Assembly: GCA_039818205.1 (NCBI GenBank)
Contig: JBCBUK010000001.1
Location: forward strand, 448,001-512,000
Reading direction: 5' to 3'
Length of the DNA stretch: 64,000 nucleotides
Origin: Verrucomicrobiota bacterium
Lineage (GTDB): Bacteria; Verrucomicrobiota; Verrucomicrobiia; Opitutales; Cerasicoccaceae
The position numbers and the translations under genes were made by a program. The notes beneath the pieces are model-generated. The model ran no database searches, was not told where the DNA came from, and saw nothing but the letters and a program-made list of their open reading frames with translations. Positions 26,201-48,984 of this stretch are shown here, piece by piece (the stretch's first letter is position 1; every line of letters starts with the position of its first letter).

Positions 26201-26203
26201 TCC

Positions 26204-29200: not shown

Positions 29201-29251
29201 GTGCTCGCCCAAACCCTCATCAATTTTGACGAATACGTCATGAAACGTTGA
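26204..29251 (+). CDS. Planctomycete cytochrome c + DUF1549 + LamG + DUF1553 protein
   Basis: FNRDILPVLSENCFFCHGPD; WLDLARYADS; CSRCHDHKYDP; RVAVNRFW; PAEMIRD; TPLQSLVLLN; internal LamG-like insert. Confidence 0.92.
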   Translation: MKTLLLSWFIGASAVAASEIKFNRDILPVLSENCFFCHGPDKANQAADLRLDLRDAAIESRAIVPGNSADSLAIQRILSTDPDDIMPPADSHRTLSEREKELLVQWIDEGAPYQKHWSFIPVDHEAEVPTAESSAIDNPIDRIVFTGLESLDLKPQPEAQKTFLLRRVYFDLIGLPPTPAEVTAFLNDDSENAYERVVDELLSRREYGERMAVHWLDLARYADSYGYQVDRDRPVWAWRDWVIESFNNNLPYDDFVTYQLAGDLLPNPTQEQRLATAFNRLHQQKAEGGSVEEEFRVEYICDRVNTFGTAFLGLTLECSRCHDHKYDPISQKEYFQLFAFFDDIDESGLYPYFGKSVPTPALKLSSPDQKAKIQALEDQTDQLIRQLIVERKSSSEDELQTWFESNPDLAVRLAKAEAMDLKPETEERGRLFDGDAETATAIGAVSRHDPFSVSFSAWTPKHHERAVICHYSGAWTDGGSRGWELLSLNGQLRFSLIHFWPGNAISIETNKPFPLDQWTQISLTYDGSSQAKGLKIYVDGKLAESTIVRDKLDRFIQFPDFPENKRPAGIRWGARERDRGFKGGRVDQAVYYPQELHSIEVTAINDDSFLARLQDKAFGSLDSHERAFIREAHLAQQHSADQSTMETLTAARQAHAKAIESIPEIMTMVELPEPKQAYLLERGAYDARGEAVIPQTPKALSLLPDDFPTNRLGLAMWLTDPDHPLFARVAVNRFWMLCFGRGLVGTAEDFGLQGEQPQYQELLDHLASDFIANEWDVKALMRKIVTSQTYRQQSIADQSIMRDDPSNRLLARGPSHRLPAEMIRDGILAASGLLVEKNGGSSVRPYDLSEAFININVPKNNGVYQRSLYTYWKLRAPSPVMMAFDAVKRDVCSAKRQTSNTPLQSLVLLNGPQFVEAARVAGSNAWQEENGKLADIIRNLSLRFIGREPDSVEIEILSELFQEQKELFEANPESADALLAVGHQAKQDNIEPADHAAVTVLAQTLINFDEYVMKR

Positions 29252-29266
29252 ACCCCTTTTTGGACA

Positions 29267-30727
29267 ATGAACAACGAATACTCCAAGTTATGCACGGGTC
29301 ACGCGAACCCTTTCCAGGTCAGCCGCCGACAGTTCCTCAACAACTTTGGCCTCGGGCTCGGCGGAATCGCCCTTTCACAGCTTCTATCCGCAAGTCCCCT
29401 CTCGGCGGCCCGCACTCCGGCATTTCTGTCATCACCTCACTATGCGCCCAAAGCAAAGCGCATCATCTTTCTGTTTCAAGCAGGAGGGCCATCGCAACTC
29501 GACCTATTTGATCACAAGCCACTACTTAACGAGCAACACGGCGAGCAACTACCCGACAGCGTGCGTCAGGGGCAGCGTCTAACGGGAATGTCCGGCAATC
29601 AGTCTTCTATCCCACTGGCAGGTAGCCCATACGAATTCAAGAAATCTGGTGAATCGGGCCAGGAAATCAGCGAACTCCTCCCCTACACTGCCCGAATTGC
29701 CGATGAACTTTGTATTGTAAAGTCTCTCTATACCGATGCCATCAATCACGGCCCAGCAACGGTGTTCATGCAAACTGGCAGCCAACTCGATGGCCGTCCC
29801 AGCATTGGCTCCTGGATCGACTATGGCCTAGGACGAGACAATGAAAACCTTCCCTCTTTCGTCGTCCTCACAACCAAAAACAAAGGCGGACAACCGTTGA
29901 AAACTGGGTTGTGGGGCAGCGGATTTTTGCCGAGCAAGCACCAAGGTATTCGATTTCGCTCTGGAAAGGACCCTGTGCTGTATTTGAATAACCCGAACGG
30001 CGTCTCCAATAAGTCACGCCGGATGATGTTGGATCGATTGAAAGAGCTCCACGAACATCAATTTGTTGGCACACCAGATGAGGAGATCCAAAGCCGCATT
30101 AGCCAATACGAAATGGCCTTCCGCATGCAGGCATCGGTTCCCGACGCAACCAATATTTCTGACGAACCCGACTTCATATTTGACGAGTATGGTCCGGACT
30201 CCCGTGAACCGGGAACCTATGCAGCCAACTGTATTCTCGCTCGCCGCCTAGCCGAGCGCGGGGTGAAGTTCATCCAGCTCTACCATAAGGGCTGGGACCA
30301 ACATAGCGGCCTACCTGGAGCGCTGCCGGTTCAATGCCGCGAAACCGACCAAGCATCAGCCGCGCTTGTCGTCGACCTGAAACGTCGCGGCCTTCTGGAC
30401 GATACTTTAGTTGTCTGGGGCGGCGAGTTTGGCCGCACGAACTATTGCCAAGGGAAACTAACGCCAAAGAGCTTTGGCCGGGACCACCACCCTCGCTGCT
30501 TCAGCTTCTGGATGGCCGGCGGGGGAGTTAAACCGGGAACCTCCTACGGAGAAACCTGCCCATTCGGCTACAATATCGTCAAAGACCCGATGCACATTCA
30601 CGACCTCCACGCGACCATGCTACATCTCATGGGGATCGACCATGAACAACTCACCTACCGTTTCCAGGGCCGCCGTTTCCGCTTAACCGACGTTCACGGC
30701 CACATTTTCAAGGACCTACTCGCTTAA
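29267..30727 (+). CDS. DUF1501 domain protein, Tat-type signal
   Basis: SRRQFL, AKRIIFLFQAGGPSQLDLFD, ARRLAERGV, GWDQH, WGGEFGRT, GRDHHP, LTDVHG. Confidence 0.93.
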   Translation: MNNEYSKLCTGHANPFQVSRRQFLNNFGLGLGGIALSQLLSASPLSAARTPAFLSSPHYAPKAKRIIFLFQAGGPSQLDLFDHKPLLNEQHGEQLPDSVRQGQRLTGMSGNQSSIPLAGSPYEFKKSGESGQEISELLPYTARIADELCIVKSLYTDAINHGPATVFMQTGSQLDGRPSIGSWIDYGLGRDNENLPSFVVLTTKNKGGQPLKTGLWGSGFLPSKHQGIRFRSGKDPVLYLNNPNGVSNKSRRMMLDRLKELHEHQFVGTPDEEIQSRISQYEMAFRMQASVPDATNISDEPDFIFDEYGPDSREPGTYAANCILARRLAERGVKFIQLYHKGWDQHSGLPGALPVQCRETDQASAALVVDLKRRGLLDDTLVVWGGEFGRTNYCQGKLTPKSFGRDHHPRCFSFWMAGGGVKPGTSYGETCPFGYNIVKDPMHIHDLHATMLHLMGIDHEQLTYRFQGRRFRLTDVHGHIFKDLLA

Positions 30728-30742
30728 CCAAAAACGCCTTCT

Positions 30743-31858
30743 ATGTTAACCAATCGCAGAAACTTCCTTAAAACGTCATCCGGCGCTATCGCGACAACCG
30801 CACTCCTCAGCATGGGATCCAGCCGACTCCTCGGTCACAATGGTGACCACCCGAGTGGGTCGATTATCGGACACGGCGATCGCAAGTACCGCGTCAATAA
30901 TGCATGGGGAAACCTGAACCCGAATCAGTTCCCAATCATCAACTGTCATGCAATGGTCGAGAGTGAATCCGGGCGCCTCTATACGCTTACGGACGTTAAA
31001 GCCAACAACATCATCGTTTACGAGCCCGATGGCACGTTCGTCGAATCCATGGACCTGGAGTATTCCGGCGGCCATGGAATCGATATCGCCAAAGAGGGCG
31101 ACGAAGAGTTCCTCTACATCGCCGACGGCGGATGGGCGAATCGCTATGGTCGCAAGGTTAGCAACGAAACCGGCCGGATCGCAAAGACTGATCTTAAAGG
31201 GCGACTCGTATTCACCATCGGCCACCCGCAAACAATCGGCGTCTACAAGCCCGGGCAATCGTTCAAGCCATGCGATATCGCCGTGGCCCCGAATGGCGAT
31301 ATCTACGTGGCCGACGGCTATGGCTCACAATGCGTCCTGCACTACGATAAACACGGCCAATACATCAACCACTGGGGTGGAAAAGATGATCCAGTTGAAG
31401 CGCGTCGACTGAATGGCTCGCACGGTGTGTCGGTCGACCTCCGCAAGCCCGATTCACCGATTCTATTGGTTGCATCGCGCGAGGCCAATCGTATCAAGCG
31501 ATTTACGATGGACGGTGATTACATCGATGAATTTTATCTGCCGGGTGCCTTTGCTGGTCAGCTTCTAGTCCAAGGCGATCACGCCTACACCGGTGTCTGT
31601 TGGTCAAAGAAAGACAACGAAGGTGGCCGATTACCGAAATCCGGATTTGTCATCGTCCTCGACAAAGACAATCAAGTCGTTTCCTGCCCGGGTGGTGAAG
31701 CTCCAGTTTACAAAGACGGTGTTCTTCAACCGCTCAATCAAGCGCCGAATGCACCATTCAAACACGTCCATGATCTTTGCGTCGACCGAGAGGAGAACAT
31801 CTACGTGTGCCAGTGGAACGCAGGTGGTGCGTATCCCATCAAGCTGGAGCTTGTATAG
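30743..31858 (+). CDS. Tat-exported NHL-repeat 6-bladed beta-propeller (peptidyl-alpha-hydroxyglycine lyase-like)
   Basis: NRRNFLK; CHAM; GGHG; PNGDIYVADGYG; HVHDLCVD; CQWNA. Confidence 0.85.
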   Translation: MLTNRRNFLKTSSGAIATTALLSMGSSRLLGHNGDHPSGSIIGHGDRKYRVNNAWGNLNPNQFPIINCHAMVESESGRLYTLTDVKANNIIVYEPDGTFVESMDLEYSGGHGIDIAKEGDEEFLYIADGGWANRYGRKVSNETGRIAKTDLKGRLVFTIGHPQTIGVYKPGQSFKPCDIAVAPNGDIYVADGYGSQCVLHYDKHGQYINHWGGKDDPVEARRLNGSHGVSVDLRKPDSPILLVASREANRIKRFTMDGDYIDEFYLPGAFAGQLLVQGDHAYTGVCWSKKDNEGGRLPKSGFVIVLDKDNQVVSCPGGEAPVYKDGVLQPLNQAPNAPFKHVHDLCVDREENIYVCQWNAGGAYPIKLELV

Positions 31859-31869
31859 CCAAGCGGTGT

Positions 31870-32838
31870 TTAGAAATGCCAATGTGCGGGTTTCAAGCCC
31901 GTCGCTTGGCTTTGGATCTGATACACTTGGTTGTCGAGCAGGCAGCCGAGTGTGATCATACTCAGATCCGTTCCACTAAACGCCAGGGAAGAAATGTTCT
32001 TCAGCGAAGCCGGGTTGTTATCCAAGTGCGGACGCCCCATCCGATGCTCTAGATACGCATCTTCGGCAGTCTCGAGATGATCAGAATCAAACTCTTCGAG
32101 CATGATCGTTTGGCTGCCGTCTGGCGCGACCTTAATCACCCGATTGCTTATGATGCTGGTCACCCAAAGGTTGCCCTCGGTGTCTCCTGTTAGGCCGTCC
32201 GGATAGGTGCCGGCTCCAAATGCCGCAATAACTTCCGGGGCACTCGCGTTACCGTCAGCGTCTAAATGGTAGCGGACCAACTGGCGTCCGAAGGTAGCGT
32301 TAACATAGAGCTCAGTGCCTTCGGGATTAACCCAACACTCATTCGTATATCCGATATTATCGGCGACGATTCGCGGGCCTTTCTTGTCGACAAGTACAAT
32401 AAAACCATTGCTTACGTTCGAGCGATACGCGTAGGCCCGTGGCTGGACGCAGGTGCTCACCGTGATCCAGATACGCCCAAGGTAATCGAGATAAACGAAA
32501 TTCGTGGGAGGCAATGCGATACCATCGACCTCCAATAGGAAGGGAGAAATTTCATTATCGCGAGTTAGCCGAAAGACGCCGCCCTGCTCCTGTCCAAGAT
32601 GAGCAATCAAGAAACTACCATCTTTGAGCAATGCGAAACCGTTGGTCTGCAAAACTCCCACCTCTTCGCAGCAGCCACCATAAAACTGCTGCGTGCCGTC
32701 AGGTTTGATGACACTGACACCGCCGCGAAAATCGGAAACAAAGATCTCTCCTCGCTCATTGGCCAAGACACACTCGGGGCGAACCAAATCTTGCCCCAGG
32801 CATCGGATTGGTTCATTAAAGCGATTGAGCTGGCTCAT
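31870..32838 (-). CDS. SMP-30/gluconolactonase family protein
   Basis: RPECV, NGFAL, PTNFV, YTNE, YPDGL; ATG 32838 overlaps the upstream stop (ATGA). Confidence 0.85.
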   Translation of the reverse strand: MSQLNRFNEPIRCLGQDLVRPECVLANERGEIFVSDFRGGVSVIKPDGTQQFYGGCCEEVGVLQTNGFALLKDGSFLIAHLGQEQGGVFRLTRDNEISPFLLEVDGIALPPTNFVYLDYLGRIWITVSTCVQPRAYAYRSNVSNGFIVLVDKKGPRIVADNIGYTNECWVNPEGTELYVNATFGRQLVRYHLDADGNASAPEVIAAFGAGTYPDGLTGDTEGNLWVTSIISNRVIKVAPDGSQTIMLEEFDSDHLETAEDAYLEHRMGRPHLDNNPASLKNISSLAFSGTDLSMITLGCLLDNQVYQIQSQATGLKPAHWHF

Positions 32839-33866
32839 AGGGAAACTACGCATCGTTGCTCGTGAGACCTATAGACGGACTCTTCAATCAGGATATTCTT
32901 CAGATAGTCCGTCGCCTGGTTTTCCAATTCGGTGTTTTCGAGGAAATGACTTACCACATGGCGAGTTAACAGATAAACACAGTCGCCACCAAACCCGTTA
33001 TCCTGCCAGGCATAGTCAACCAGCTGTTCGTCATTCTCTCCAAACTGGCGGAGCCAAATCCGTGCTTCTCCATCGAGACGAATAGTGCCTTGCGTTCCCT
33101 CAAGCCACATCTCACCCATCGTTCGGCGACGATTCGAGGCGGCATGATCCAGGCATCGGTTTCCATCAAACACTCCCTGTGCACCGCTCTCGAACTCAAA
33201 CACGATAAGCCCGCTGTCTTCACCCGCGATCGCCGGATTGCACTTTCGAAGACGCGCACTCACGGAGTTCATTTCACCGAGCAGATAGCGAAAGACATCG
33301 ATCATGTGGATGGCTGTTTCGTGCACGAGAAAACGCGGCATCGTCTGAAAATATGGCTGTCGATCCAAGTATGCCTGGTCCCCTTGTCCATCACCGGGGC
33401 GCAAGCGATAAGAAATATTCAACACCTCACCAATAGCACCTTTCGAATGCATCTCGGCAATTTTTCGATACCATGGCATGAAGCGAAAATTCTCATGAAC
33501 GACAATTTTCTGCCCGGCCTCGTGCGCCACATCGACCAGCCGTTGGGCCTGCTCACGATTCTCCGTAAATGGCTTCTGGCAGATAACGTCCTTACCCATC
33601 TCAAGAGCCTGCGTAACCAGCGCGACGTGGGTGGTCGGTGGCGTGATCACATCCACCAAATCAAACGCCAGCTCACTCAACTGACTCAAATCCGTCGCCC
33701 AATGATCAATATCCAGGGAGGATGCTAACTGCTTGGCCTTTTCGAGGTCTTGGTCGACAACGCAAACGAGCTGAACCGCAAACTCCTGCTCTAATCGCTT
33801 CCACGCTGCGTAATGAAACTGCGCGAAATAACCTGCCCCCACACATACGACTCTCAATTGGTTCAT
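32835..33866 (-). CDS. Gfo/Idh/MocA oxidoreductase (resembles D-apiose dehydrogenase subgroup)
   Basis: GAGYFA Rossmann start, CQKPF, VHENFRF, QPYF, ETAIH. Confidence 0.85.
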   Translation of the reverse strand: MNQLRVVCVGAGYFAQFHYAAWKRLEQEFAVQLVCVVDQDLEKAKQLASSLDIDHWATDLSQLSELAFDLVDVITPPTTHVALVTQALEMGKDVICQKPFTENREQAQRLVDVAHEAGQKIVVHENFRFMPWYRKIAEMHSKGAIGEVLNISYRLRPGDGQGDQAYLDRQPYFQTMPRFLVHETAIHMIDVFRYLLGEMNSVSARLRKCNPAIAGEDSGLIVFEFESGAQGVFDGNRCLDHAASNRRRTMGEMWLEGTQGTIRLDGEARIWLRQFGENDEQLVDYAWQDNGFGGDCVYLLTRHVVSHFLENTELENQATDYLKNILIEESVYRSHEQRCVVSL

Positions 33867-35410
33867 GATGCTTCTCCCCCGCTCGATCCATTACCCATAA
33901 GCCGATTCTTGAGCGATCCAAGCACCTTCTTCGCCCACGGCGTCTGCTGTAGAACCAATATGATAATGGCGATGAAGAAAAGGACCGCAACCGGGCGCTC
34001 AAACATTGGCCAAGGATTGCCTTCTGTTGTGAGCAAGGCACGGCGCAGATTCTCGTCCGCCATTGGGCCAAGGATCAACCCAATCACCAAAGGCGATATT
34101 GGGTAATTCATCGAGATCATCGCGTAGGCCAAAATGCCAATTGGTAGCATCAACATCAGGTTGAAAACGCTAAGTCCTAAAGCGTATGACCCCAAAACGC
34201 AGAGCAATGCAATCACCGGCATGAAGAGTGCAGCTGGGATCTGAAGGAGTTTTACCACTTGTTTCGCCAGAAACAGACCATTGCCAAACATTGCCAAGGA
34301 CGCCAGGACCATAACTGCCGTGACTTCCATCAGAAACTCCGGCTTTTCCACCGCAAGGGTTGGCCCGGGGTTCACGCCGTGGAGCATCAGCGCGCCCAAG
34401 AGCATTGCCGCGGGAGCGCTTCCGGGAATACCAAGCGTTAGCAACGGGATCAAAGCACCGCCAATACAGGCATTGTTAGCCGTCTCGGCCGCAATCAAGC
34501 CTGACTCATTGCCCTCGCCAAATGGCGGTTCCTCGCCCTTCTTTTCATCTTTTGCTTTCGAGGCACCATAGGAAACCCAGCCCGCGATGTCCTCGCCAAT
34601 ACCAGGTACTGATCCGATACCCACACCAATCATTGCGGACCGCAGGATCGTTTTCGCCCGACGAAAGATCGCTTTCACCTCTGGAATAATCCGACCAAAC
34701 TGTCGGGCTTTTGCCAGAGCCTGCTTCTCGGAAAGCACTTTGATAATTTGCGGAATGCCAAACGCACCAATCAGCACCGGAACGATGTCCAAGCCACTAT
34801 CGAGTTCAGGATAGCTGAACGTAAACCGTGGAAAAAACTGCAACGGGTCGCGGCCAACCATTGCCAAAAACAAGCCAATGAATCCCGCGATCCACCCTTT
34901 GATTGCGTTCCCTTGGCTCGTAAGTGTGCCGCTAATCAGGATACCAAAAATGGCCAGTAGAAAGAACTCAAACGATGTAAACTGAAGCGCAATCGACGCG
35001 ATCAAGGGGGCCAGCAAGACCAAGATCAGCAGGCCAAAAATCGTTCCAATCATCGAGGCCGTTGTCGTCAGCCCCAACGCCTTTCCGCCTTCACCACGAC
35101 AAGCCATCGGGTAGCCTTCGACCGCTGACGCAGCTGCCGCGGCCGTGCCCGGAATATTGATCAAGATACTTGGGTATGAGCCACCGTAAATGGCTCCAAC
35201 GTAGAGGCCCAGCAACGCTAACAAGGCCGAACTCACGTCGAGCCCATAGGTAAGGGTCGTCAAAAGAGCGACTCCAAGGGTAGCCGTCAACCCGGGCAAT
35301 GCCCCAAAGAGAATCCCAAGAAAGCTCGCCCCGATCACAATCAGGATATTTACCGGGTTGCTAACGATCTCCCACAGGATCTGAAAGAACAAGCTGAACT
35401 GTTCAATCAT
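33863..35410 (-). CDS. tctA: Tripartite tricarboxylate transporter permease
   Basis: GALPGL, YGGS..SILINIPG, AETANNA, IPLLTLGIPG, GLILGPMADENLRRAL. Confidence 0.95.
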   Translation of the reverse strand: MIEQFSLFFQILWEIVSNPVNILIVIGASFLGILFGALPGLTATLGVALLTTLTYGLDVSSALLALLGLYVGAIYGGSYPSILINIPGTAAAAASAVEGYPMACRGEGGKALGLTTTASMIGTIFGLLILVLLAPLIASIALQFTSFEFFLLAIFGILISGTLTSQGNAIKGWIAGFIGLFLAMVGRDPLQFFPRFTFSYPELDSGLDIVPVLIGAFGIPQIIKVLSEKQALAKARQFGRIIPEVKAIFRRAKTILRSAMIGVGIGSVPGIGEDIAGWVSYGASKAKDEKKGEEPPFGEGNESGLIAAETANNACIGGALIPLLTLGIPGSAPAAMLLGALMLHGVNPGPTLAVEKPEFLMEVTAVMVLASLAMFGNGLFLAKQVVKLLQIPAALFMPVIALLCVLGSYALGLSVFNLMLMLPIGILAYAMISMNYPISPLVIGLILGPMADENLRRALLTTEGNPWPMFERPVAVLFFIAIIILVLQQTPWAKKVLGSLKNRLMGNGSSGGEAS

Positions 35411-35434
35411 TGATTCCCCTCCGCTGCTGCTGGA

Positions 35435-36190
35435 TTAACCATGGCGTATTCCAAAATAGATCCAATCGATGATGAGTAGTATGCTCCCTTCCGCCGGCAT
35501 GGGAACCAACAGGAGAAACTTAAAAATTAGCACGACAATGAACGGTATTAACACCGTCGCCCACAGCAATTGCCTGCGCTGCCGCTGCAGCCCCTGGCCT
35601 TGCAAATAGATCCAGACCTGAGCCCATCCAAAAGCAAGAATTGGTAAAACCAATGTGTCTGCGGCGAGCACGCGACGCGATTCCTCATCGAAAGCACCCA
35701 CAACGTTGATCGCTAACGCCCATAGCGACGCCCCACCGATCAGCCAAAACATTAGTTTACCGACGGCTCCCGCCTCGGGTACAAAAAACCTAAATGATAG
35801 ACAGATGAGGAACAGCCAACTCGCGACCAGAAAGTCGACATTTGGAATCAAGCAAAGAACATAAGCCGCCAGCAACGCGATGATCTGGACCACCGACCAC
35901 TGCGTTTCTGTGAAGCGTTTCACGGTCCAAAAATCTACCTTACCGATTGCCGACCATCCAAGAGCAGCGCCCGCCTTCCCCATCAAGAATAGGCTAAGGA
36001 TCAACAAGACCAATCCAATGAACAAGGGCATCAGGGCCGGAGATACATACCAGGCGTTATCCACGCCACCGTATGCACCCGTCAACGGATACTGGGCGCC
36101 CTGGATGAGTACGTATACCGAAAACAGGCTGAGGATCAGCCCTGAGATAAAGTCTTTTCGTGGAGATTGTTGGTCGGATGATTCAGCCAT
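35435..36190 (-). CDS. tctB: Tripartite tricarboxylate transporter small membrane subunit (long variant)
   Basis: Multi-TM protein between tctA and tctC; SPALMP; C-terminal FKFLLLVPMP. Confidence 0.7.
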   Translation of the reverse strand: MAESSDQQSPRKDFISGLILSLFSVYVLIQGAQYPLTGAYGGVDNAWYVSPALMPLFIGLVLLILSLFLMGKAGAALGWSAIGKVDFWTVKRFTETQWSVVQIIALLAAYVLCLIPNVDFLVASWLFLICLSFRFFVPEAGAVGKLMFWLIGGASLWALAINVVGAFDEESRRVLAADTLVLPILAFGWAQVWIYLQGQGLQRQRRQLLWATVLIPFIVVLIFKFLLLVPMPAEGSILLIIDWIYFGIRHG

Positions 36191-36202
36191 GGCGGCGGCC
36201 TA

Positions 36203-37261
36203 TTAATTCGGCGGATTAATACCGAGGGTATCGGGGTGGCGACGGGTGACTCCCAATTCATGAAGGGTCCAGGCAAACAGCGACTCTAGCTTAGCGAAGC
36301 CCTCTTTCGCTTCCTCACCGGACGCTCCAGATAAAACAAAGTAATTATCCTTAGCCCATCGCTGTAGCCGCTCACTTTGCAGCGCGTCTTTAAATGCACG
36401 GTCAAGCGCGTCTTTGACTGCAGGATCAGCGTCGTCCCTAATTGCGAAACCAATCACTTGAGTTATTGGCAGGTATTGCTTCAAGCTCGGATAAGCTTTG
36501 AGCGCTGACGGCACATCGCCAATGTCCGGGTCGCTAAAATCATCGTCGCCCAACATTGCCAATGGCCGCAATTGGCCACCTTTAATTAGCTGCTGCTGCT
36601 CGGCCAGAGAGGTGATGACGAGGTCCACCTCCTTGGTAACAGCGGCTGTCTGCGCCGGCGCCGATCCCGGATAAGGAACAAAACGCATGTCGATACCCGT
36701 GCCTTTGAGAAATGCCAGTAGATTCAAATGGTGCAACGAACCTGAGCCGCCGGCTGCCGCCTTGATTGTGCCAGGGTTCTCCTTTGCGTAAGCAACGAGT
36801 TCTTCGAGACTGTTAATTTCAGAATCCGCACCTACGGATATGAGGTCCGTCGAACCACCAATGACAAAGGGGTGCCAGACGTCCATCTTTTGGTCCCAAC
36901 CGCCCATAACTGCAGCGGTCACACACGACTCGCTAATGCCGACCAACGTGTAACCGTCGCTCGCGCGCTGTTTAACATAATTCATCCCCAAGGAACCCGC
37001 GATACCACCAGGCTTATTTGCGACATTTACGTCGATCCCCAGAGCTTCGCCCAACTCTACAGCGACCATTCGATTAGCAACGTCGGTCCCGCCACCCGCT
37101 GACCAGACGACAACGTTAGTAATTGGACGACGTGGATAATTATTCGAACTCTCAGGCAAAGAATATGCACCGACCAATACCGCTACCACCAAGATCGCAA
37201 ACACCGCGTAGACGGGAGCTTTGCGAACCTTTGATTGGGGTTTAACTGGCGGTTGATCCAT
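36203..37261 (-). CDS. tctC: Tripartite tricarboxylate transporter substrate-binding protein
   Basis: YPRRPI..WSAGGGTD, NKPG, DGYTL, GSGSLHHL, VPYPGSAP, LRPLA. Confidence 0.92.
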   Translation of the reverse strand: MDQPPVKPQSKVRKAPVYAVFAILVVAVLVGAYSLPESSNNYPRRPITNVVVWSAGGGTDVANRMVAVELGEALGIDVNVANKPGGIAGSLGMNYVKQRASDGYTLVGISESCVTAAVMGGWDQKMDVWHPFVIGGSTDLISVGADSEINSLEELVAYAKENPGTIKAAAGGSGSLHHLNLLAFLKGTGIDMRFVPYPGSAPAQTAAVTKEVDLVITSLAEQQQLIKGGQLRPLAMLGDDDFSDPDIGDVPSALKAYPSLKQYLPITQVIGFAIRDDADPAVKDALDRAFKDALQSERLQRWAKDNYFVLSGASGEEAKEGFAKLESLFAWTLHELGVTRRHPDTLGINPPN

Positions 37262-37265
37262 CTAA

Positions 37266-38393
37266 CTATTGGGTTTCAAGCGATCGGAAAATTTTATCGG
37301 AAATTTGCTCAAGGCCATCCTTGCCGCCAAACTCAATCGGCAACAATTGGTTCGACTGATAAGCAGCCAACACTGCCTGGTTAATCTGCTTCGCTGCATT
37401 AACCATACCTGCGTGTTCATGCTTCTCACCCAACCAGTCGAGCATCATCGCCGCCGACAAAAACATAGCCGTCGGATTCGCTTTGCCCTGCCCCATAATA
37501 TCTGGCGCGCTGCCGTGACAGGGCTGAAAAACTGCTAGTGAATGACCGATATCAGCAGAGGGTGCCATGCCCATCCCGCCCATGAGTCCGGCTCCGAGGT
37601 CGGAAAGAATATCGCCGAACATATTCTCAGTCACCATGACATCAAAGATCCATGGCTGGCGGACCAGCTGCAATGCTGCGGCATCCACATAAATGTGACT
37701 CGCCTTAATATCTGGGTATTCGCGGGCGACTTCGTCGAACACCTGACGGAAGAAATAAAATGACCCCAAGACGTTCGCCTTGTCTACACAGGTTACTTCG
37801 CCCGGGTACCCGAGCAGTTTGCGCCGACGAGCCGTTTGGAACGCAAAATGAAACAAACGCTCCGATCCCTTGCGGGTAATAACCTGGGTATCTTTAGCAA
37901 CCTCGGCTCCGGATTCGCCTTCCATCACGAATCGATTCCGTGATGCAAACAAGCCTTCGGTTGATTCACGGATCAGTACGAAATCAAGTTTCCGTCCGCG
38001 CTCATCCGCCAACGGTAACGGAAGATTTGGAACCGTCTTTACCGGACGGACACCAGCGAATAAGTCGAGCTCCTCGCGAAGTTCGAGCTGTGGTGCAATC
38101 TCTCGCCCGTCCGGATATCGAATCGACGGCATTCCCATGCAGGCCAAGAGAACGGCATCGGCCGCATGAGCTGCTTGGAGCGACGTCTCGGGCAGTGCAA
38201 CGCCCGTCTTCTGATAATGGGCAGCACCGGCTTCCAGAACTGAAAACTCGCACTGAGTGTTGTTCATCTGGCAGGCTTGCTCGATGAGCTTGAGGGCGAC
38301 CGGCGTCACCTCTTCACCTATCCCATCGCCGGGAAACACAGCGATACTAAAGACCTTAGACATGGATGAGCTTCCTTCGGAAAAGGATTTCAT
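37266..38393 (-). CDS. Isocitrate/isopropylmalate/tartrate dehydrogenase family protein (atypical active site)
   Basis: [47 protein letters not shown]. Confidence 0.9.
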
Positions 38394-39073
38394 AACTGAT
38401 TAAATCGATGTTTTTCCAGCAGCGACAGCATCGCTTCTTTACCTTTAACTCGATGAATGCGATGGATCTCAGCTGCTTTCTCAGCGTTTCCCAAACAAAT
38501 CGCATCAACAACAGCGACGTGATCGCGAGTCGAATCGGTAGGCTTGGGTCGGATGTATAAAGTGCAATAACGTGCGCGATGGGCTTGGCCCCAAAACTGC
38601 AAAACCAGGTCGAGTAATCGCTGGTTGCCTGTCAACTCGACCAACGCCAAATGAAAAGATTCATCCGAGGCGGCCCACGCTTCACGATCATCCTCCTTCA
38701 TCGCTTGCTCCATGGCCATCGTCGGCCGCGTTAGGCGTTCGATCTGGGCTGCGCTTAAATCTCGGGCAGCCAATATGCGGGCTGCTTCAGATTCCAAGGC
38801 CGTTAGCACCTGATAGATTTCCGCCATATCATTGATCGATATCGGTTTGATGCGGATGCCATGCCGAGGCTTGATGTCGACCAATCCTTCGCGCTCCAAA
38901 CGAACGCACGCTTCGCGCACCGGAGTTCGGCTGACCCCCAGTCGCTCGCCAAGCTCCTTCTCAAGGATCTGCTCTCCCGCGCTCAATACATTGTTCAAGA
39001 TGTCCTCCCGCAGCGACTGATAGGTCATCTCAGCTAACGGAACTCCCGATGTTTTCTTTATGGAAGCACTCAT
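38390..39073 (-). CDS. GntR (FCD) family transcriptional regulator
   Basis: LGVSRTPVREA..LEREGLV HTH; FCD FH..LV..TGN..H..H. Confidence 0.93.
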   Translation of the reverse strand: MSASIKKTSGVPLAEMTYQSLREDILNNVLSAGEQILEKELGERLGVSRTPVREACVRLEREGLVDIKPRHGIRIKPISINDMAEIYQVLTALESEAARILAARDLSAAQIERLTRPTMAMEQAMKEDDREAWAASDESFHLALVELTGNQRLLDLVLQFWGQAHRARYCTLYIRPKPTDSTRDHVAVVDAICLGNAEKAAEIHRIHRVKGKEAMLSLLEKHRFNQL

Positions 39074-39146
39074 TTAAATGGGGGTAATGGCGAGCGAGGT
39101 CGAATATTGCAAAAATTTTAAACTAACTTATTTCCTTGAAGGCAGA

Positions 39147-39166
39147 ATACATTAGTGCATACATTA
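39147..39166. promoter_or_regulatory. Candidate GntR operator
   Basis: ATACATTA direct repeat (39147, 39159) overlapping TGCATACA (39156-39163) in the AT-rich divergent intergenic region. Confidence 0.4.
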
Positions 39167-39220
39167 ATTTATTCGCCATGTTGGCCAGATAAATCTCGGA
39201 TTTCAACCCTTTTTCGCAAA

Positions 39221-40522
39221 ATGCAGCCTCACTTCAGCAGGACGCCTATTCTAGGTTGTATTGCCGACGACTTTACCGGTGCTTCTGACCTTGCCGGCTT
39301 TATCCTAAAGAGTGGATTGCGGGTCGTGCAGGTAAATGGTGTTCCCCGTCCAGGGCAGCATTTGAGCGGGGACTACGACGCAGTGGTTATCGCACTGAAG
39401 TCTCGGACTTGCCCAATTGAAGAAGCAATTCAAGACAGCGTTAGCTCACTCAACTGGCTGAAAGGTCTTGGCTGTCAGAAATTCTATTTTAAGTATTGCT
39501 CGACCTTCGATTCCACTTCGCGAGGGAACATAGGACCGGTTGCAGAAGCGTTGATGGAGCAGCTCAATTGTCCGCAAACAATATTCTGTCCGGCGCTTCC
39601 CGTCAACGGGCGAACAGTCTACCAAGGACATCTTTTTGTTTTCGATCAGCTGCTTTCCGATAGTCCCCTGCGAAACCATCCCCTAACTCCCATGCGGGAC
39701 AGCTCGTTAATACGCCTGCTTCAAGCCCAGCTTACAGCTCCGAATCGAGAACGGGTAGCTCTGCTCGACCATGCTTCGCTGACCAATGCGCCTGTTGACG
39801 CCGATGAATACCTTAATCGTTTTGTTGTTACAGATTGTATTGACGACGCAGATCTTGAGCAGATCGCAAAGTCATTTGGATTGAAAAGCGATTGGCCCCT
39901 ACTCACCGGTGGCTCCGGACTTGGCGAATACCTTGGTCGAGAATATTTGGATGCGAATCTAATCGAGCCGAGTGCAAATGCTGGCAACATCCAACCGAAT
40001 CCCGGGCGGACCTTATTTCTAGCAGGAAGCTGCTCAGAGGCAACGCGCCAGCAAGTTGCCCGTGCCCAAGAAGCCATGCCGAGCTATGAGCTCGACGTAG
40101 CGGCACTTGCAAAAGGCCAGATTAACGCTGAAGACATTTTTAGCTGGGTCCAAGATTCTCAGAGCGAAGCCTGCCTGGTCTACAGCTCGGCAACGCCCGA
40201 TGCAGTCGCAACGAATCAAGAGCAATTTGGAGTTGGATCAATCAGCGAACTCATCGAAGAGTGTTTCACACAAGTCGCCACCCTAGCCAGACGGGCAGGA
40301 ATACTGAACCTTGTCGTCGCTGGCGGAGAGACCTCTGGAGCCATCGTTCGAGGTCTTGGCTTGTCGGAGCTCACCGTTGGCCCGAGCATCTGCCCAGGTG
40401 TACCGCTCCTCCAAGCCCCCAAAGACGACCGACTATTAGTTGCCTTAAAGTCGGGAAATTTTGGCAACCAAGACTTCTTTCTTTCAGCCCTAAACCTGAT
40501 TCGATCTCACGTAGTTTCATGA
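39221..40522 (+). CDS. otnK: 3-oxo-tetronate kinase (DUF1537 family)
   Basis: LGCIADDFTGASD, ALKSRT, FKYCSTFDST, GNIGPV, HPLTPM, GSCS, AGGETSG, LKSGNFG; ATG 39221 preferred over GTG 39155. Confidence 0.9.
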   Translation: MQPHFSRTPILGCIADDFTGASDLAGFILKSGLRVVQVNGVPRPGQHLSGDYDAVVIALKSRTCPIEEAIQDSVSSLNWLKGLGCQKFYFKYCSTFDSTSRGNIGPVAEALMEQLNCPQTIFCPALPVNGRTVYQGHLFVFDQLLSDSPLRNHPLTPMRDSSLIRLLQAQLTAPNRERVALLDHASLTNAPVDADEYLNRFVVTDCIDDADLEQIAKSFGLKSDWPLLTGGSGLGEYLGREYLDANLIEPSANAGNIQPNPGRTLFLAGSCSEATRQQVARAQEAMPSYELDVAALAKGQINAEDIFSWVQDSQSEACLVYSSATPDAVATNQEQFGVGSISELIEECFTQVATLARRAGILNLVVAGGETSGAIVRGLGLSELTVGPSICPGVPLLQAPKDDRLLVALKSGNFGNQDFFLSALNLIRSHVVS

Positions 40523-41154
40523 CCGCAGAATCAGAAGCCCGCCAACAGCTCGTAACGATCGGTAAATCACTGTTCGATCGCGGACTGACGCCCGGTGCCT
40601 CGGCCAACATCAGTATCCGCATTGCCGAAGGCTTTTTGATGACACCAACCGGATCATGCTTGGGCTTCCTCGAAGCCGATCGCCTATCGTTACTTGATCC
40701 ATCCGGCAACTGGATGAGCGGGGACAAACCATCGAAGGAATTCATTCTTCATCAAGCGATTTACGACCAGAGACCCGATGATCACGCGGTCGTCCACCTT
40801 CACAGTACTTGGAGCACTGCGCTTTCCTGTTTGGCAAACCTCAACCCAGAAGATGTCATTCCGCCGCTAACTCCCTACCTCATAATGCGGCTGGGGCGAA
40901 TCGTCCTTGTCCCCTATTTTGCTCCCGGCTCCCAGGAGCTCGCTGCTGCCGTTCGGGAAAAGGCCGGCGAGCACGCCGGAATATTGATGGCCAACCACGG
41001 GCCCATTGTTGCCGGAAAAGACCTGACTACCGCAATGTACAATATCGAGGAATTTGAAGAAAGTGCCAAATTGATGCTGCTACTCAAGGACAGAAAAACG
41101 CGACAGCTGTCCGATCAAGAATACCAGGAACTGTTGACCCGATACGCAAAATAA
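40519..41154 (+). CDS. otnC: 3-oxo-tetronate 4-phosphate decarboxylase (class II aldolase fold)
   Basis: SLFDRGLTPGASANIS, TPTG, GDKPSKE, VHLHST, PPLTPY, ANHGP, EEFEE; ATGA overlap with otnK. Confidence 0.88.
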   Translation: MTAESEARQQLVTIGKSLFDRGLTPGASANISIRIAEGFLMTPTGSCLGFLEADRLSLLDPSGNWMSGDKPSKEFILHQAIYDQRPDDHAVVHLHSTWSTALSCLANLNPEDVIPPLTPYLIMRLGRIVLVPYFAPGSQELAAAVREKAGEHAGILMANHGPIVAGKDLTTAMYNIEEFEESAKLMLLLKDRKTRQLSDQEYQELLTRYAK

Positions 41155-41164
41155 AAGGAATACC

Positions 41165-41452
41165 ATGTACGTGATAACCGTAGAATTTATGATTAAGCCC
41201 GATCGGCTTGATGCATTTATCGATGCGATCCAAGAGAATGCGACGACTTCGCTGCAGATAGAAGATGGTTGCCATGGCTTTGATGTGTGCCAAAGCGAAG
41301 CTGACCCCAATCGAATATTCTTGTACGAATTGTATACCGAAAAAGAAGCCTTTGAGGCCCACTTGGAATCCGAACACTTTCGTGAGTTTAATGACCTCTC
41401 CTCTGAATGGGTTGAGAGCAAGAAAGTTGATTCCTGGGTGTGGAATGCCTAA
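41165..41452 (+). CDS. ABM-family protein, LsrG/putative quinol monooxygenase-like
   Basis: FIDAIQENATTS..EDGCHGFDV..IFLYELY..AFEAHLESEHF; SD AAGGA; 10 bp after otnC. Confidence 0.85.
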   Translation: MYVITVEFMIKPDRLDAFIDAIQENATTSLQIEDGCHGFDVCQSEADPNRIFLYELYTEKEAFEAHLESEHFREFNDLSSEWVESKKVDSWVWNA

Positions 41453-41556: not shown

Positions 41557-42426
41557 CTAGTTCTGTGGTGTAAGGTCCTTGATAAATATATTTTTGTACA
41601 TCGCAGACCCACCGGGTTGCCATCTTCCTCCGGGATGAACCTGCAATGCGATTGATCCGCTACCGCCCGTTATTTTTTGGACTTTCTCGCTATCCCAAGC
41701 ACTCGGCTTGTCCCAGTCCTGTTGAATCTCATCCCGAAGCTGGCGGCCGCGATACAGGCTACCATCGAACTCCATTACTTTAACGCCGTTTATCCAGGTA
41801 GTAATAAATGGTTCCGGACCGACACAGACAACTTTCAAGGTATTCCACTCGCCATGCTTCCAAGCTTGGTTCCAGCCCTCGGCATCAATCGCGTAGAGTA
41901 AGCCATCAACCTCAACAGCGTCATAGATGTCGCGAGCAATGACATCGTTCGCTTCACTCACGTTTGGCTCCCCATAAAGGCGAATGGGTCTCGAAATATA
42001 GGCACCCGTTCCCTGCCCGAAAGGAAAACCAATAGAGCCATCTTCTAGGTAGTCGTTGAGAACCTGAATGCCGCGTCCGTCGTCGGTACAACGAAGGAAA
42101 ATCCCGGAATCGCATCCCCAGTCGCTTTTAATATCAATCAGCAATTCAAAGTCTCGAAACTTCTTTTCTGAAAGGAGGAGACCACCTTTTCGCTCTGGCC
42201 CTGTTTGGAAGCAGTGGAGCGCACCACCCTTTACGAAGAAATTTTCTTCGGTTGCATAGTATTTATTATCCGCTGGCACCTCCATAATCTTCCAGCCATC
42301 CAATGAGTCTCCATTGAACAGGCTTTGATGCTCGGCGGTCGATGAGCAACAACTAGGCTTGGCAAACACACTACAGATTGCACCTACGCCTAAACAAAGC
42401 GAAAAGCAGATGGTCGGGATTTTCAT
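41557..42426 (-). CDS. DUF1080 (3-keto-disaccharide hydrolase family) secreted protein
   Basis: Signal peptide from ATG 42426; SLFNGDSLDGW, DFEL, DSGIFLR, GEWN, WINGVKV, GSIALQVH, YKNIFIK. Confidence 0.9.
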   Translation of the reverse strand: MKIPTICFSLCLGVGAICSVFAKPSCCSSTAEHQSLFNGDSLDGWKIMEVPADNKYYATEENFFVKGGALHCFQTGPERKGGLLLSEKKFRDFELLIDIKSDWGCDSGIFLRCTDDGRGIQVLNDYLEDGSIGFPFGQGTGAYISRPIRLYGEPNVSEANDVIARDIYDAVEVDGLLYAIDAEGWNQAWKHGEWNTLKVVCVGPEPFITTWINGVKVMEFDGSLYRGRQLRDEIQQDWDKPSAWDSEKVQKITGGSGSIALQVHPGGRWQPGGSAMYKNIFIKDLTPQN

Positions 42427-42446
42427 TATCGTTGCTTGTTGAATGT

Positions 42447-43835
42447 TTAAGCCTTCCAGAGCTCGTCGCCATACTCCCACCCCTTACGAGTATCCCCGCG
42501 CAGGTAGGCATTTAACTCAGGCCGATTGGTGATTCCTTTCTTTGGATCCCATTCGATACGGCCACCAACCTTCGTCGCAAGCACACCGATCAACATCATC
42601 TCCGTGAACGGCCCGGCAAAATCAAAGTTAGCGCCCGGTTCAGGTCCATCTCCCTTAATGGCGTTCACCCACTCGCGAAATGGACCCCCCTTAAGACGAG
42701 GATACTTTTGTTCGGGATAGCCTGCGGCTTTAAACTCCCTCATCGCCTCTTTGTCGGCCAGCCGCGGGTTGTTTGAGCGCGCATCCGTGAAGACATCTTG
42801 TTTCTCACCAAAGTAATAGGTTCCGGTATCCGGGAGCTTCTCTCCCCAGGTCCATTTTTCCGGAGCATTCGGTAACATCTCAGCCGCACCGTTGTGCCAG
42901 TAGAACTTGCAAGGTATTTTGCTTCCTCGCTCTTTAAACTCCCACCGAACAACATTGCCGTCCGGGACAATCCAATCGTTTCCGCCGGAGACTGTTTCCG
43001 CCTCAACCACAACCGGCTCATACAAATCAAGAACCCAAACCGGCGCATCTGCCACGTGCGGCATCCAATCCCCGATCAATCCATTGCCAAATGTATTAAA
43101 CCCGCGCCAGCTTTTTGGATGGTAGAGCTTATTGAAAGGCGTATCGGCGGAGACCGGTCCAAGCCAAAGATCCCAATTCAGCTGTTCCGGAACAACATCG
43201 GTCACCGGAGGAAATTCAATGGGCTTGTGAAAGTAACTATTATCCTCCCCGATAGGCCTCCACTTTGGTCCAACGCGCCACGAATGGACTTCGTTTATCT
43301 GACCAAAAACATCTGCCTCGTACCACTCGCGCATCTGCCGGATGCCATCAAAGGTATGCCCTTGGACTGCCATGTTCGTGACGACCTTGTAGTAGTCCTT
43401 GGCTTTCTTCAAGGTCTGCGCCTGCCAAATGTTGTGCGTGAGCGGTTTCTGAGTACAAACATGCTTACCCAATTGCATCGCATGCATCGTCGCAACGAAG
43501 TGCGTATGGTCGGGGGTATTGATGCATACTGCGTCAATTTCCTTGTCCATCTTGTCCAACATCTGCCGGAAATCGTCAAACTGTGCCGCCTCCGCGACCT
43601 CCGGGTGCTTCTCTTGGTGCTGAAGAAAACGGCGTGAATCAACATCGGCGAGCGCCACAATGTTTTCTCCCTTACAACCGCCATAAGCCATTGCCGCGAT
43701 GTTTCCAGCGCCGATCATGGCAATGTTGATTTTACTGTTAGCCGATGGTCCAGGCTTCCCAATACTAAAGCGCGGAAGCGTGAATGCGCCAGCGGTTGCT
43801 ACCGCTGATGTCTTGATGAAGTTACGACGATTCAT
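42447..43835 (-). CDS. Tat-exported Gfo/Idh/MocA dehydrogenase
   Basis: [45 protein letters not shown]. Confidence 0.92.
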
Positions 43836-44087: not shown

Positions 44088-45146
44088 TCAACCAATGGAA
44101 CCGTCCCAACGCAATCGCACGTGGTAGGACGCCGGGGTATTCCCAGGCAAATCAGCCGGTCCCAAGATATGCTCATTGCTGGGTGCGACCCCAACCGGAG
44201 CCGGTTGAACAGCCAACAACAAGTAACGACTCCCGTCGGTATCGATAAAAATCTGCGGTCGCTCCAGACGCTCAAACTGAATATGGGCGCCATCGTCCAT
44301 CTCGACCTCACGATCAATTACGAAGTGGGGGTCGCTTGGCTTCCAATTGATGCCATCCGTAGATTGAAACAAGAGTAAGCCCATTTCTCCAGTGGGCGAA
44401 ATCCTCGCGTCCATCGTCTTCATCAAGCAAAAGATGATGTCGTCTTCGACCCATATAGCAGGGTCTTCATATGGAAAGAGTTCACCGGGCAAATCAAACA
44501 AGCAATCTGGATGGAGTTGGAAAGGTCCAGTCGGAGACTCAGCAAAAGCAACGCCATGCCTAACGGCTCCTCCACGTGTTTCCGTGCCTTCGGCGACCCC
44601 CTTAAACATTAAAAGGAAGCGCCCATCGGGCATCTGGGTTGCAACTGGATTTGCATGCATCAGCCCGTCCCACTGTCCGGATCTTGGAATCAGCAAGGGT
44701 TCATCTGAACGCTTCCATGGTCCCGCCGGGTGATCGGCCACCGCAACTCCGATCCGTTGATTATTGCGATGGCTCCAGTAATCGCCGTTTCCATGGTTGC
44801 CAGTGTAGTACATGTAATAGCGATCGCCGAACTGCTTAACCAGAACGTTGTGCGCATTGTCCGCGTCCCAAAAAGCCCCTGTTCGTTTTCCCAACACCAG
44901 CTCCTTGAACTCAAATGGCTTATCCAACGAAGTCGACTCCGCACGAATAATTTCGGATTGATTAATCCAACCATCGTGACCGGAGGACTCGGGCCAGCGA
45001 CAGAGAAACAGGTGATAGCGCCCCTCAGGGTCGCGGACCATTGAAGCGCACCAAACAAACCAACCCTGCATCTTGAAGAAATGCCTTTCGTTCGCGGGTT
45101 GGAATCGGTTCTTTGTTTTGGGATCAGACATTACAAGATCTTTCAT
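44088..45146 (-). CDS. Five-bladed beta-propeller glycoside hydrolase (GH43/GH117-like), no signal peptide
   Basis: WCAS, YHLF..RW, HN, YYMYYTG, NQRIGVAVA..PAGPW, ANP, EDP, QSTDGINW, LERPQI. Confidence 0.8.
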   Translation of the reverse strand: MKDLVMSDPKTKNRFQPANERHFFKMQGWFVWCASMVRDPEGRYHLFLCRWPESSGHDGWINQSEIIRAESTSLDKPFEFKELVLGKRTGAFWDADNAHNVLVKQFGDRYYMYYTGNHGNGDYWSHRNNQRIGVAVADHPAGPWKRSDEPLLIPRSGQWDGLMHANPVATQMPDGRFLLMFKGVAEGTETRGGAVRHGVAFAESPTGPFQLHPDCLFDLPGELFPYEDPAIWVEDDIIFCLMKTMDARISPTGEMGLLLFQSTDGINWKPSDPHFVIDREVEMDDGAHIQFERLERPQIFIDTDGSRYLLLAVQPAPVGVAPSNEHILGPADLPGNTPASYHVRLRWDGSIG

Positions 45147-45150
45147 ATCG

Positions 45151-48977: not shown

Positions 48978-48984
48978 AAAATTA

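Follow-up and report, generated by a model that had tools for sequence, protein, structure and literature searches.

An apparently undescribed upstream module for OtnK and OtnC, with a distinctive clade of IPMDH-family dehydrogenases, in a Verrucomicrobiota bacterium

We analysed a 64,000-nucleotide stretch of the genome of a Verrucomicrobiota bacterium (GCA_039818205.1, contig JBCBUK010000001.1, positions 448,001 to 512,000; hereinafter, the window). At 31870..41452 it carries two divergent operons, which combine genes for the tetronate-pathway enzymes OtnK and OtnC with those for a dehydrogenase of the 3-isopropylmalate dehydrogenase (IPMDH) family, a Gfo/Idh/MocA-family dehydrogenase (Gfo), a lactonase, a tripartite tricarboxylate transporter (TTT), an ABM-domain protein, and a GntR-family regulator. 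According to the comparative analysis, this upstream module for OtnK/OtnC is real and widespread, has a distinctive clade among its enzymes, and is apparently undescribed; no description of it was found in the literature searched, which took in few subscription journals. The cluster likely digests an acidic five-carbon sugar via a route that was not found in this literature either. According to the best reading, which we favor tentatively, the acid sugar is converted to a lactone and then to a diacid of the hydroxymethyl-tartrate type, the latter is oxidized and loses CO2 to yield 3-oxo-tetronate, which is in turn converted to dihydroxyacetone phosphate (DHAP).

Organization of the Locus

Open reading frames and family scans give the gene order gntR-ipm-tctC-tctB-tctA-gfo-sgl on the minus strand and otnK-otnC-abm on the plus strand. 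The minus-strand operon encodes the GntR/FCD regulator (38390..39073; Pfam GntR and FCD), the IPMDH-like dehydrogenase (37266..38393; Pfam Iso_dh), the TctC solute-binding protein (36203..37261; Pfam TctC, 96.6 bits), a TctB-like small membrane subunit (35435..36190), the large membrane subunit TctA (33863..35410; Pfam TctA, 435.9 bits), an ApsD-like Gfo protein, which likely dehydrogenates an acidic sugar at C1 as an aldose dehydrogenase (32835..33866; family scan and structure match), and a protein of the SMP-30/gluconolactonase (SGL) family, likely a lactonase (31870..32853; Pfam SGL, 63.7 bits). All three transporter subunits are thus encoded in one operon, TctA and TctC being above the cut-offs and TctB, assigned also by its position between tctC and tctA, just below (Pfam TctB, 26.9 bits, cut-off 29.1). 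The plus-strand operon encodes the 3-oxo-tetronate kinase OtnK (39221..40522; NF043035, 495.6 bits, cut-off 350), OtnC (40519..41154; NF043034, 295.5 bits, cut-off 250), and an ABM-domain, LsrG-like protein, predicted to be a ketol isomerase or enediol tautomerase (41165..41452; Pfam ABM, 77.8 bits). OtnK and OtnC score above their curated cut-offs; for the IPMDH-like protein, Gfo, and the ABM protein, no specific model gives a score above the cut-off. Gaps within the operons range from -19 to +24 bp, and the divergent starts are 147 bp apart. The likely otnK start is the ATG at 39221; a longer GTG start at 39155 would overlap the palindrome described below. Scanning the DNA between the two operons for promoters and terminators yielded no match.

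The source genome is 4.85 Mb long and 99.97% complete. The genes otnK, otnC, abm, and sgl are each single-copy in it, and a second Iso_dh gene, on C2, encodes a separate, higher-scoring LeuB, which keeps the usual tyrosine. A first-pass annotation of this DNA, made from the sequence alone, had described the divergent locus and noted the lack of LtnD, DenD, and OtnI. All ten genes are indeed present, in two tight operons, and the lack holds for the whole genome, where no protein above the respective cut-off was found (best scores 176.8 vs 350 bits for LtnD, 62.6 vs 325 bits for DenD, and 42 vs 325 bits for OtnI).

Distribution and Regulation of the Module

In a genome survey for the IPMDH-like protein (best 80 of 557 loci, with an estimated 2,500 or so stored stretches; many loci were short), Gfo was found in 29 out of 80 loci, GntR in 24, SGL and ABM in 22 each, OtnC in 13, and OtnK in 12; one more kinase match, the 13th, is OiaK-like. 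In a metagenome survey of 80 loci seeded on Gfo, the IPMDH-like protein was present in 32, and in 24 out of 34 among loci of at least 8 kb. An even sample of 400 Pseudomonadota genomes, searched for the IPMDH-like protein, yielded 14 matches, 12 with a phenylalanine motif discussed below and two with tyrosine in its place; among the 12 genomes of the phenylalanine type, Gfo lies within 10 kb in six and OtnK within 10 kb in four. When 186 loci are considered, all six enzyme slots are filled in at least 11, and ABM accompanies the IPMDH-like protein and OtnK in 20 out of the 23 loci that have both. Besides Pseudomonadota, the module was encountered in Verrucomicrobiota and in one Bacteroidota record, its parts being interchangeable and its gene order varied; linkage of the two operons in other genomes, for which the first-pass annotation had proposed a neighborhood analysis, is thus seen across phyla.

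A 16-bp AT-rich palindrome in the intergenic region (39152..39167) is, judging from its sequence and distribution, likely the GntR operator. It was scored with a matrix derived from 11 sites of other loci, which had been located by means of a core taken from the window's own site; no other site of the genome scores as high (24.3 vs 17.3 for the runner-up; 13 sites score at least 13). Palindrome sites are present in 34 out of 57 loci with this GntR (27 out of 50 after dropping seven training loci) vs three out of 46 loci without it, 27 of these 46 controls being of the Bradyrhizobium type. The palindrome-bearing loci include the variant with an ABC transporter (see below). Genome sites scoring 17.3 or less are possible further regulon members.

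These observations bear on the explanation that the two operons are functionally unrelated and adjacent by chance. It would account for the absence of otnK within 10 kb in 68 out of the 80 loci of the genome survey and for the patchiness of the module, which was not found in 40 relatives, five of them from the same genus. However, the same gene set recurs across phyla in many orders, the palindrome is common to the loci, gene fusions join upstream and downstream parts, and otnK resides elsewhere in most of these genomes: OtnK is above the cut-off in 41 out of 50 genomes (the genomes of 50 of the 80 loci, picked for module genes plus seven others, and mostly metagenome-assembled genomes, MAGs). 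Chance is therefore already largely refuted, and we consider it extremely improbable. Given the recurrence, the shared palindrome, and the fusions, the two operons constitute a single unit that is conserved and likely co-regulated, in agreement with the single route initially drawn across both.

The closest relative of the IPMDH-like protein in the tree is a sequence from a Pseudomonadota MAG, which, together with the absence of the module in relatives, makes it likely that the module reached the source genome by horizontal transfer. The Gfo subfamily was observed in three out of 400 other genomes of the Verrucomicrobiota phylum.

A Bradyrhizobium-type subclade of IPMDH-like genes (about 23 loci, L020-L053) is located between genes for zinc alcohol dehydrogenase and enoyl-CoA hydratase, near peptide ABC transporter genes, and its loci have neither GntR nor the palindrome. 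This subclade may have a different substrate.

An IPMDH-Like Clade Without the Family Tyrosine

The IPMDH-like clade is widely annotated as "3-isopropylmalate dehydrogenase." The window protein shares with TtuC, LeuB, HICDH, and IDH the fold (model pLDDT 92; Z 47.1 to 5J33, an IPMDH-fold match, and 46.1 to the tartrate dehydrogenase, TDH, 3FLK), the arginine triad, the lysine, and three aspartates: R106, R142, K205, D237, D261, and D265 are kept in 80 out of 80 loci, and R116, in 79. It differs from them in being below the curated cut-offs of LeuB (TIGR00169, 268.6 vs 353.2), tartrate dehydrogenase (TIGR02089, 250.1 vs 470.4), HICDH, and IDH, and in forming a separate clade. The phenylalanine clade (49 rows) has SH-aLRT support of 98 in a tree that was built by a quick method from 44 of the 80 loci and eight references (52 rows) and where the protein falls outside the TtuC branch. 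A further difference is three residues invariant in 80 out of 80 loci: F149 in place of tyrosine, Q290 in place of glutamate, and Q102 at the side-chain pocket. F149 is present in 120 out of 120 top homologs, and the lower ranks of broader representatives (114 of 150 taken in) mostly have tyrosine at this position, as do TtuC and the source genome's own LeuB. Hence, the assignment to the IPMDH family made at the outset stands as regards the fold, the arginine triad, the lysine, and the three aspartates, but the loss of the family active-site tyrosine had been overlooked.

This tyrosine corresponds to Y139 of Thermus thermophilus, which we take to be the proton donor and a contact to the leaving carboxylate in IPMDH. 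The reaction of beta-decarboxylating dehydrogenases proceeds through lysine-activated oxidation, metal-assisted decarboxylation, and enol tautomerization (PMC8468904, partial text). Retention of the full arginine triad argues for a diacid substrate. In a cluster from Chondrinema litorale (Bacteroidota), a TDH-clade enzyme (468.3 vs the cut-off of 470.4) stands beside the same Gfo subfamily; it groups with TtuC (support 99, long branches flagged) yet has phenylalanine for tyrosine. Its own tyrosine-to-phenylalanine change in this setting points to tartrate-like chemistry.

Gfo Dehydrogenase, Lactonase Slot, and ABM Protein

The solved structure nearest to Gfo by sequence is 5UHW (E 1.5e-34), which is also the nearest by fold (Z 40.9, rmsd 2.1, 329 aligned, 27% identity; Z 36.3 for the next entry). 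We take 5UHW to be the D-apiose dehydrogenase ApsD, its entry title reading "oxidoreductase" only. Residues R237 and R247 of Gfo are invariant in 19 out of 19 sequences, and R169, in at least 90%; R169, R237, and R247 are all invariant in 102 out of 102 Gfo fusion proteins, and their counterparts in 5UHW are Gly, Tyr, and Glu, respectively. The transporters of Gfo-type clusters, where seen, are of the TTT, TRAP, or ACS-MFS type, with SSF in L006. The TTT, TRAP, and ACS-MFS transporters together with the three subfamily-invariant arginines favor an anionic substrate, as had been assumed. For the window TctC, only distant PDB relatives were found, and solved solute-binding proteins gave no ligand; for the TRAP protein DctP and the rhizobial ABC solute-binding protein, the search gave no close solved relative and no ligand.

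The SGL lactonase and a metallo-beta-lactamase-fold (MBL) protein similar to acyl-homoserine lactone lactonases are mutually exclusive: among the 186 loci, 46 have SGL only, 17 have MBL only, and none has both. A cyclase-family protein fills the lactonase slot in three Verrucomicrobiota genomes and in C. litorale. Out of 163 longest-form relatives of the cyclase, 120 were listed, and 106 of these match the Gfo subfamily; the cyclase is also fused to the IPMDH-like protein (with the phenylalanine), to a DUF1537 kinase, and to an extended short-chain dehydrogenase/reductase (SDR), and the Atlas cluster has 98 members. The Gfo-cyclase fusions (P0253-P0360) are labeled "kynurenine formamidase" or "D-apiose dehydrogenase" (JGI), come mostly from Planctomycetota where named, and probably are dehydrogenase-lactonase fusions of this pathway. 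Three hydrolase classes interchanging in one slot argue for a lactone intermediate, another element of the original proposal that gains from the comparison.

The ABM protein aligns E55, H66, and H71, invariant in 18 out of 18 sequences, with Glu54, His65, and His70 of LsrG, presumably the proposed active site of the latter. Since ABM proteins often have such residues, this sharing is weak evidence for a common function. LsrG isomerizes phospho-DPD (PMC8016206 and PMC12274486, partial texts); the window protein resembles it in the ABM fold and the aligned Glu and two His, but scores 49.5 vs the cut-off of 135 bits with the LsrG model and has no lsr neighbors in the loci examined. In our view, it probably acts in the pathway as an isomerase or tautomerase. 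The label "LsrG-like" is thus apt for the fold, and what it missed is this probable role and the replacement of the protein in other clusters. Namely, in three genomes (G086, G125, and G268), the place of ABM is taken by a VOC protein similar to methylmalonyl-CoA epimerase, and that of OtnK, by another DUF1537 kinase. No OtnC above the cut-off was found in these genomes, and each has a single class II fructose-bisphosphate aldolase. TctC of the G086 cluster is 74% identical to the window TctC.

Cluster Variants and Relation to Apiose Catabolism

A rhizobial plasmid version comprises a sugar ABC transporter, an extended SDR, GntR, the IPMDH-like protein, ABM, a HAD hydrolase, and an aldehyde dehydrogenase (ALDH), with otnK-otnC in one out of the three rhizobial plasmids inspected; the R. 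phaseoli and A. tumefaciens plasmids have the same extended SDR with HAD and ALDH. In the ABC variant of B. jicamae, the same SDR is located beside an AidB-like lactonase, accompanied by HAD, two ALDHs, and a GMC oxidoreductase. As the SDR and the lactonase already serve C1 there, the presence of ALDHs argues for a diacid. A minimal version in Herbaspirillum consists of an ACS-family MFS transporter, GntR, the IPMDH-like protein, and ABM only.

Several observations concern the surroundings of these variants. A divergent operon encoding transketolase, FBPase, aldolase, triosephosphate isomerase (TIM), and DerI above the cut-off adjoins an ABC-type variant (L111:789-6166). Just past the ALDH gene, weak OtnK profile matches (L111:15616-16224, 47 bits; L114:15616-15843, 85 bits) suggest decayed otnK remnants on plasmids of bean rhizobia; Phaseolus is given as the source in 10 out of 15 plasmid matches. 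In the supplement to an exudate RNA-seq study of R. phaseoli Ch24-10 (PMC8581550, seen in part), a term search matched only chromosomal leucine-pathway and HAD genes. The otnC gene is shortened or absent in some otherwise complete clusters (L006:5594-5869, L003, L234), which would fit spontaneous decarboxylation of a phosphorylated beta-keto acid. In two distant loci (L001:17576-18703 and L196:10526-11605), the module is accompanied by a secreted-looking protein of about 360 amino acids without a family, whose two copies are 54% identical and match the Pfam apiosidase-like domain at E 0.002 only; it has more than 6,000 homologs, all named ones being "hypothetical," and is absent from the source genome. 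Finally, on Aminobacter and Antarctobacter plasmids (L197:7442-16570 and L198:1651-15972), the same Gfo subfamily belongs to another cluster, without the IPMDH-like gene, which encodes a 222-aa hypothetical protein, an extended SDR, an AP_endonuc_2 TIM barrel, thiamine diphosphate (ThDP) enzymes, and a cupin.

Apiose is a common sugar of plants and seagrass. Its oxidative pathway, with ApsD, ApnL, ApnO, and the Oia enzymes, was reportedly described by Carter et al. in 2018; a summary is available in PMC13753588 (partial text). The module resembles this pathway in that an ApsD-like C1 dehydrogenase is followed by a lactonase, but differs in the mere 27% identity, the three extra invariant arginines, the SGL/MBL/cyclase lactonase, OtnK instead of OiaK, and the lack of DerI in complete-module genomes. 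The ApnO profile PF16896 had no match in the source genome, but none in control genomes either. One may still consider an ApnO-independent D-apiose route, in which Gfo and the lactonase would produce D-apionate, the IPMDH-like protein would oxidize C2, and the resulting 2-oxo-apionate would either lose formaldehyde to give an oxo-tetronate or be converted by ABM to 3-oxo-isoapionate and further to erythrulose phosphate. Such a route would suit the natural abundance of apiose, the similarity of Gfo to ApsD (several fusions being named "D-apiose dehydrogenase" by JGI), the weakly apiosidase-like protein in two loci, and the DerI and TIM genes flanking the rhizobial variant. On the other hand, the window kinase scores 495.6 with the OtnK model vs 87 with OiaK, DerI is absent in all complete-module genomes searched, the window module has no aldehyde dehydrogenase, and neutral apiose needs no three invariant arginines; we hold this route to be quite improbable.

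Proposed Pathway

In the branched-diacid reading favored here, TctABC would likely import an acidic five-carbon sugar, Gfo would oxidize it at C1 to a lactone, and SGL would open the lactone to a diacid, most likely a branched hydroxymethyl-tartrate. The IPMDH-like enzyme would then oxidize the 2-hydroxyl and decarboxylate the diacid to a C2=C3 enediol. Since the enediol can become either oxo-tetronate, there would be a job for ABM or VOC, and the loss of the tyrosine would be useful: without it, the enediol (or the beta-keto acid) would leave the enzyme and not be protonated to 2-oxo-tetronate and re-reduced. ABM (VOC in the variant clusters) would resolve the released enediol, ABM likely steering it to 3-oxo-tetronate, from which OtnK and OtnC would produce DHAP and CO2; DHAP, the originally proposed end, is also the most economical one. 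Established chemistry is the basis on which we infer that C1 is oxidized and a lactone formed, that an enzyme of the IPMDH fold oxidizes the 2-hydroxyl, and that the OtnK/OtnC steps follow; the diacid identity, the loss of CO2 at the IPMDH-like step, and the enediol release to ABM/VOC are putative.

The rhizobial version would start from a neutral sugar, D-apiose being the obvious candidate, and would need one more oxidation to arrive at the same diacid, whereas the minimal Herbaspirillum version would import the diacid directly; one shared diacid is the simplest way to join diacid import, the acid sugar, and the neutral sugar with ALDH. For CO2 loss to end at 3-oxo-tetronate, the diacid must have five carbons, being either branched hydroxymethyl-tartrate or a linear pentarate; the branched acid is favored by the intact arginine triad, by the similarity of Gfo to ApsD, and by the TDH-clade enzyme that stands in for the IPMDH-like one. 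The rarity of DerI, which is above the cut-off in three out of 52 genomes, none of them with a complete module, argues for a C4 end product, and erythrulose-phosphate end products are disfavored for the main variant; still, a generic RpiB of the source genome, 32% identical to DerI, might substitute for it. Overall, the carboxy-branched tetrose suggested by the first-pass annotation is retained as the leading, albeit tentative, option for the substrate. Its other candidate, an aceric acid-like sugar, fits poorly and was rejected on chemical grounds: OtnK would find no terminal CH2OH in its product, and there are no downstream genes.

The linear option can be formulated as a penturonate/pentarate route, where a linear C5 uronic acid is converted to a pentarate, the IPMDH-like enzyme oxidizes C2 without decarboxylation, ABM moves the carbonyl to C3, and CO2 loss yields 3-oxo-tetronate. 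It accounts for the anion transporters, the Gfo arginines, and the ALDH of the neutral-sugar variant, as well as for the tyrosine loss and the retention of ABM alongside OtnI. However, the conserved arginine triad would have no beta-carboxylate to bind in a pentarate, the nearest characterized relative of Gfo acts on a C3-branched tetrose, and the route would not supply the substrate of the VOC-cluster kinase if the latter is, putatively, a 2-oxo-tetronate kinase. We consider it unlikely.

A number of points weigh against the branched-diacid pathway. We know of no natural 3-C-carboxy-tetrose, and none was found in the literature searched. The identity of Gfo to 5UHW is just 27%. The tyrosine also contacts the leaving carboxylate in IPMDH, and hence its loss fits a non-decarboxylating enzyme equally; the convergent loss rests on one sequence, with a long-branch warning. 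The arginine triad binds the C1 carboxylate too, so that its retention is not decisive. DerI, TIM, and transketolase genes beside the rhizobial copies point to tetrose-phosphate metabolism, and the neighborhood of the Bradyrhizobium subclade is unrelated to the module. An ABM ortholog (E 1e-20) is absent in 31 out of 67 genomes with the IPMDH-like protein or Gfo (it was found in the other 36), and several OtnI-bearing genomes keep ABM. Finally, OtnK and OtnC take C5 and C6 3-oxo acids in vitro (PMC12994016, partial text), which leaves the chain length not fixed.

Relation to the Tetronate Pathway

The four-step pathway of L-threonate and D-erythronate is said to have been described by Zhang et al. 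in 2016. It consists of LtnD or DenD, OtnI, OtnK, and OtnC (PMC12994016 and PMC12540250, partial texts). The module resembles it in that OtnK and OtnC are above the curated cut-offs and the predicted end is DHAP and CO2, but the source genome has no LtnD, DenD, or OtnI above the cut-offs, and upstream of OtnK/OtnC there are the Gfo dehydrogenase, the lactonase, the IPMDH-like enzyme, and the ABM protein. Thus, the module works like the tetronate pathway but does not belong to the four-step route. The initial statement that OtnK/OtnC are normally fed by LtnD or DenD plus OtnI was incomplete, as two bypasses of OtnI have been published, Ltn3D, an SDR (PMC12994016), and ApnO, with the ketol-acid reductoisomerase (KARI) fold (PMC13753588; both seen in part). 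These, similarly to the module, supply 3-oxo-tetronate without OtnI, but their folds are unlike those of the module, and the terms "isopropylmalate" and "LsrG" are absent from the main texts of the two articles.

In the set of 50 genomes, OtnI-family matches are absent from seven: six out of 14 with otnK or otnC in the locus vs one out of 36 others (p 0.001, kin being not independent). LtnD is above the cut-off in 29 out of 67 genomes, and hence plain L-threonate probably is not the substrate.

These data are pertinent to a non-orthologous pathway for tetronates or linear aldonates, in which Gfo and the lactonase would yield an aldonate, the IPMDH-like enzyme would replace LtnD/DenD as a non-decarboxylating (2R)-hydroxyacid dehydrogenase, ABM would replace OtnI, and OtnK/OtnC would finish. 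Here every gene is used, and the substrates are natural and known; L-threonate is L-tartrate with C4 reduced (PMC12994016, partial text), and the LsrG reaction shifts a carbonyl between adjacent carbons (PMC8016206, partial text), as OtnI does. The lost tyrosine, the depletion of OtnI in genomes with a clustered module, and the DerI and TIM genes adjoining the rhizobial variant are also in line with it. At the same time, it would be redundant with canonical ltnD in the 29 genomes mentioned, the anion transporters accompany an aldose dehydrogenase with three extra invariant arginines, the ALDH of the ABC variant would duplicate the SDR and the lactonase, and ABM is retained where OtnI exists. 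We rate this pathway as rather unlikely, next in probability after the branched-diacid one. The remaining probability, after the branched diacid, tetronate, pentarate, apionate, and chance explanations, belongs to other substrates.

Neighboring Genes

Convergent with the ABM gene and outside the module, the minus strand carries a second Gfo gene paired with a 3-keto-disaccharide hydrolase gene (41557-43835); this Gfo matches, below the cut-off, the model of BT_2158-like glycoside 3-dehydrogenases. A sulfated-glycan region adjoins the module (44088-63211), with a GH43-like protein, five sulfatases, an SSF transporter, and an AraC/XylR regulator. On the other side, planctomycete-type DUF1592/DUF1552 and DUF1549/DUF1553/DUF1501 gene pairs are found at 13793-18739 and 24533-31858, together with genes for an NHL-repeat protein and, by sequence reading, a FecR-like protein.

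Implications

Going further, and more doubtfully than for the pathway itself, one may suppose that a carboxy-branched C5 sugar (3-C-carboxy-tetrose or hydroxymethyl-tartrate) is common in seas and soils and has a dedicated pathway in about 3% of Pseudomonadota species; that a tyrosine-less decarboxylating dehydrogenase, releasing an enediol, was recruited for it twice; that ABM/VOC tautomerases decide which oxo-tetronate forms; and that rhizobia reach the same diacid from D-apiose. If the latter is true, this would be a further apiose pathway. The phenylalanine-type clade is large and is carried by 12 out of 400 sampled Pseudomonadota species; the label "3-isopropylmalate dehydrogenase" is widely applied to it despite the lack of the family tyrosine and its location in sugar-acid catabolic clusters. 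With the GntR regulator, TctC, and the operator, the substrate can be screened for directly. Solving the pathway would add an entry route into the tetronate pathway and assign functions to VOC proteins, to ABM proteins (labeled "quinol monooxygenase"), and to those of the cyclase family (labeled "kynurenine formamidase"); it may also bring to light a sugar acid that has been overlooked in the carbon flow of seas and roots.

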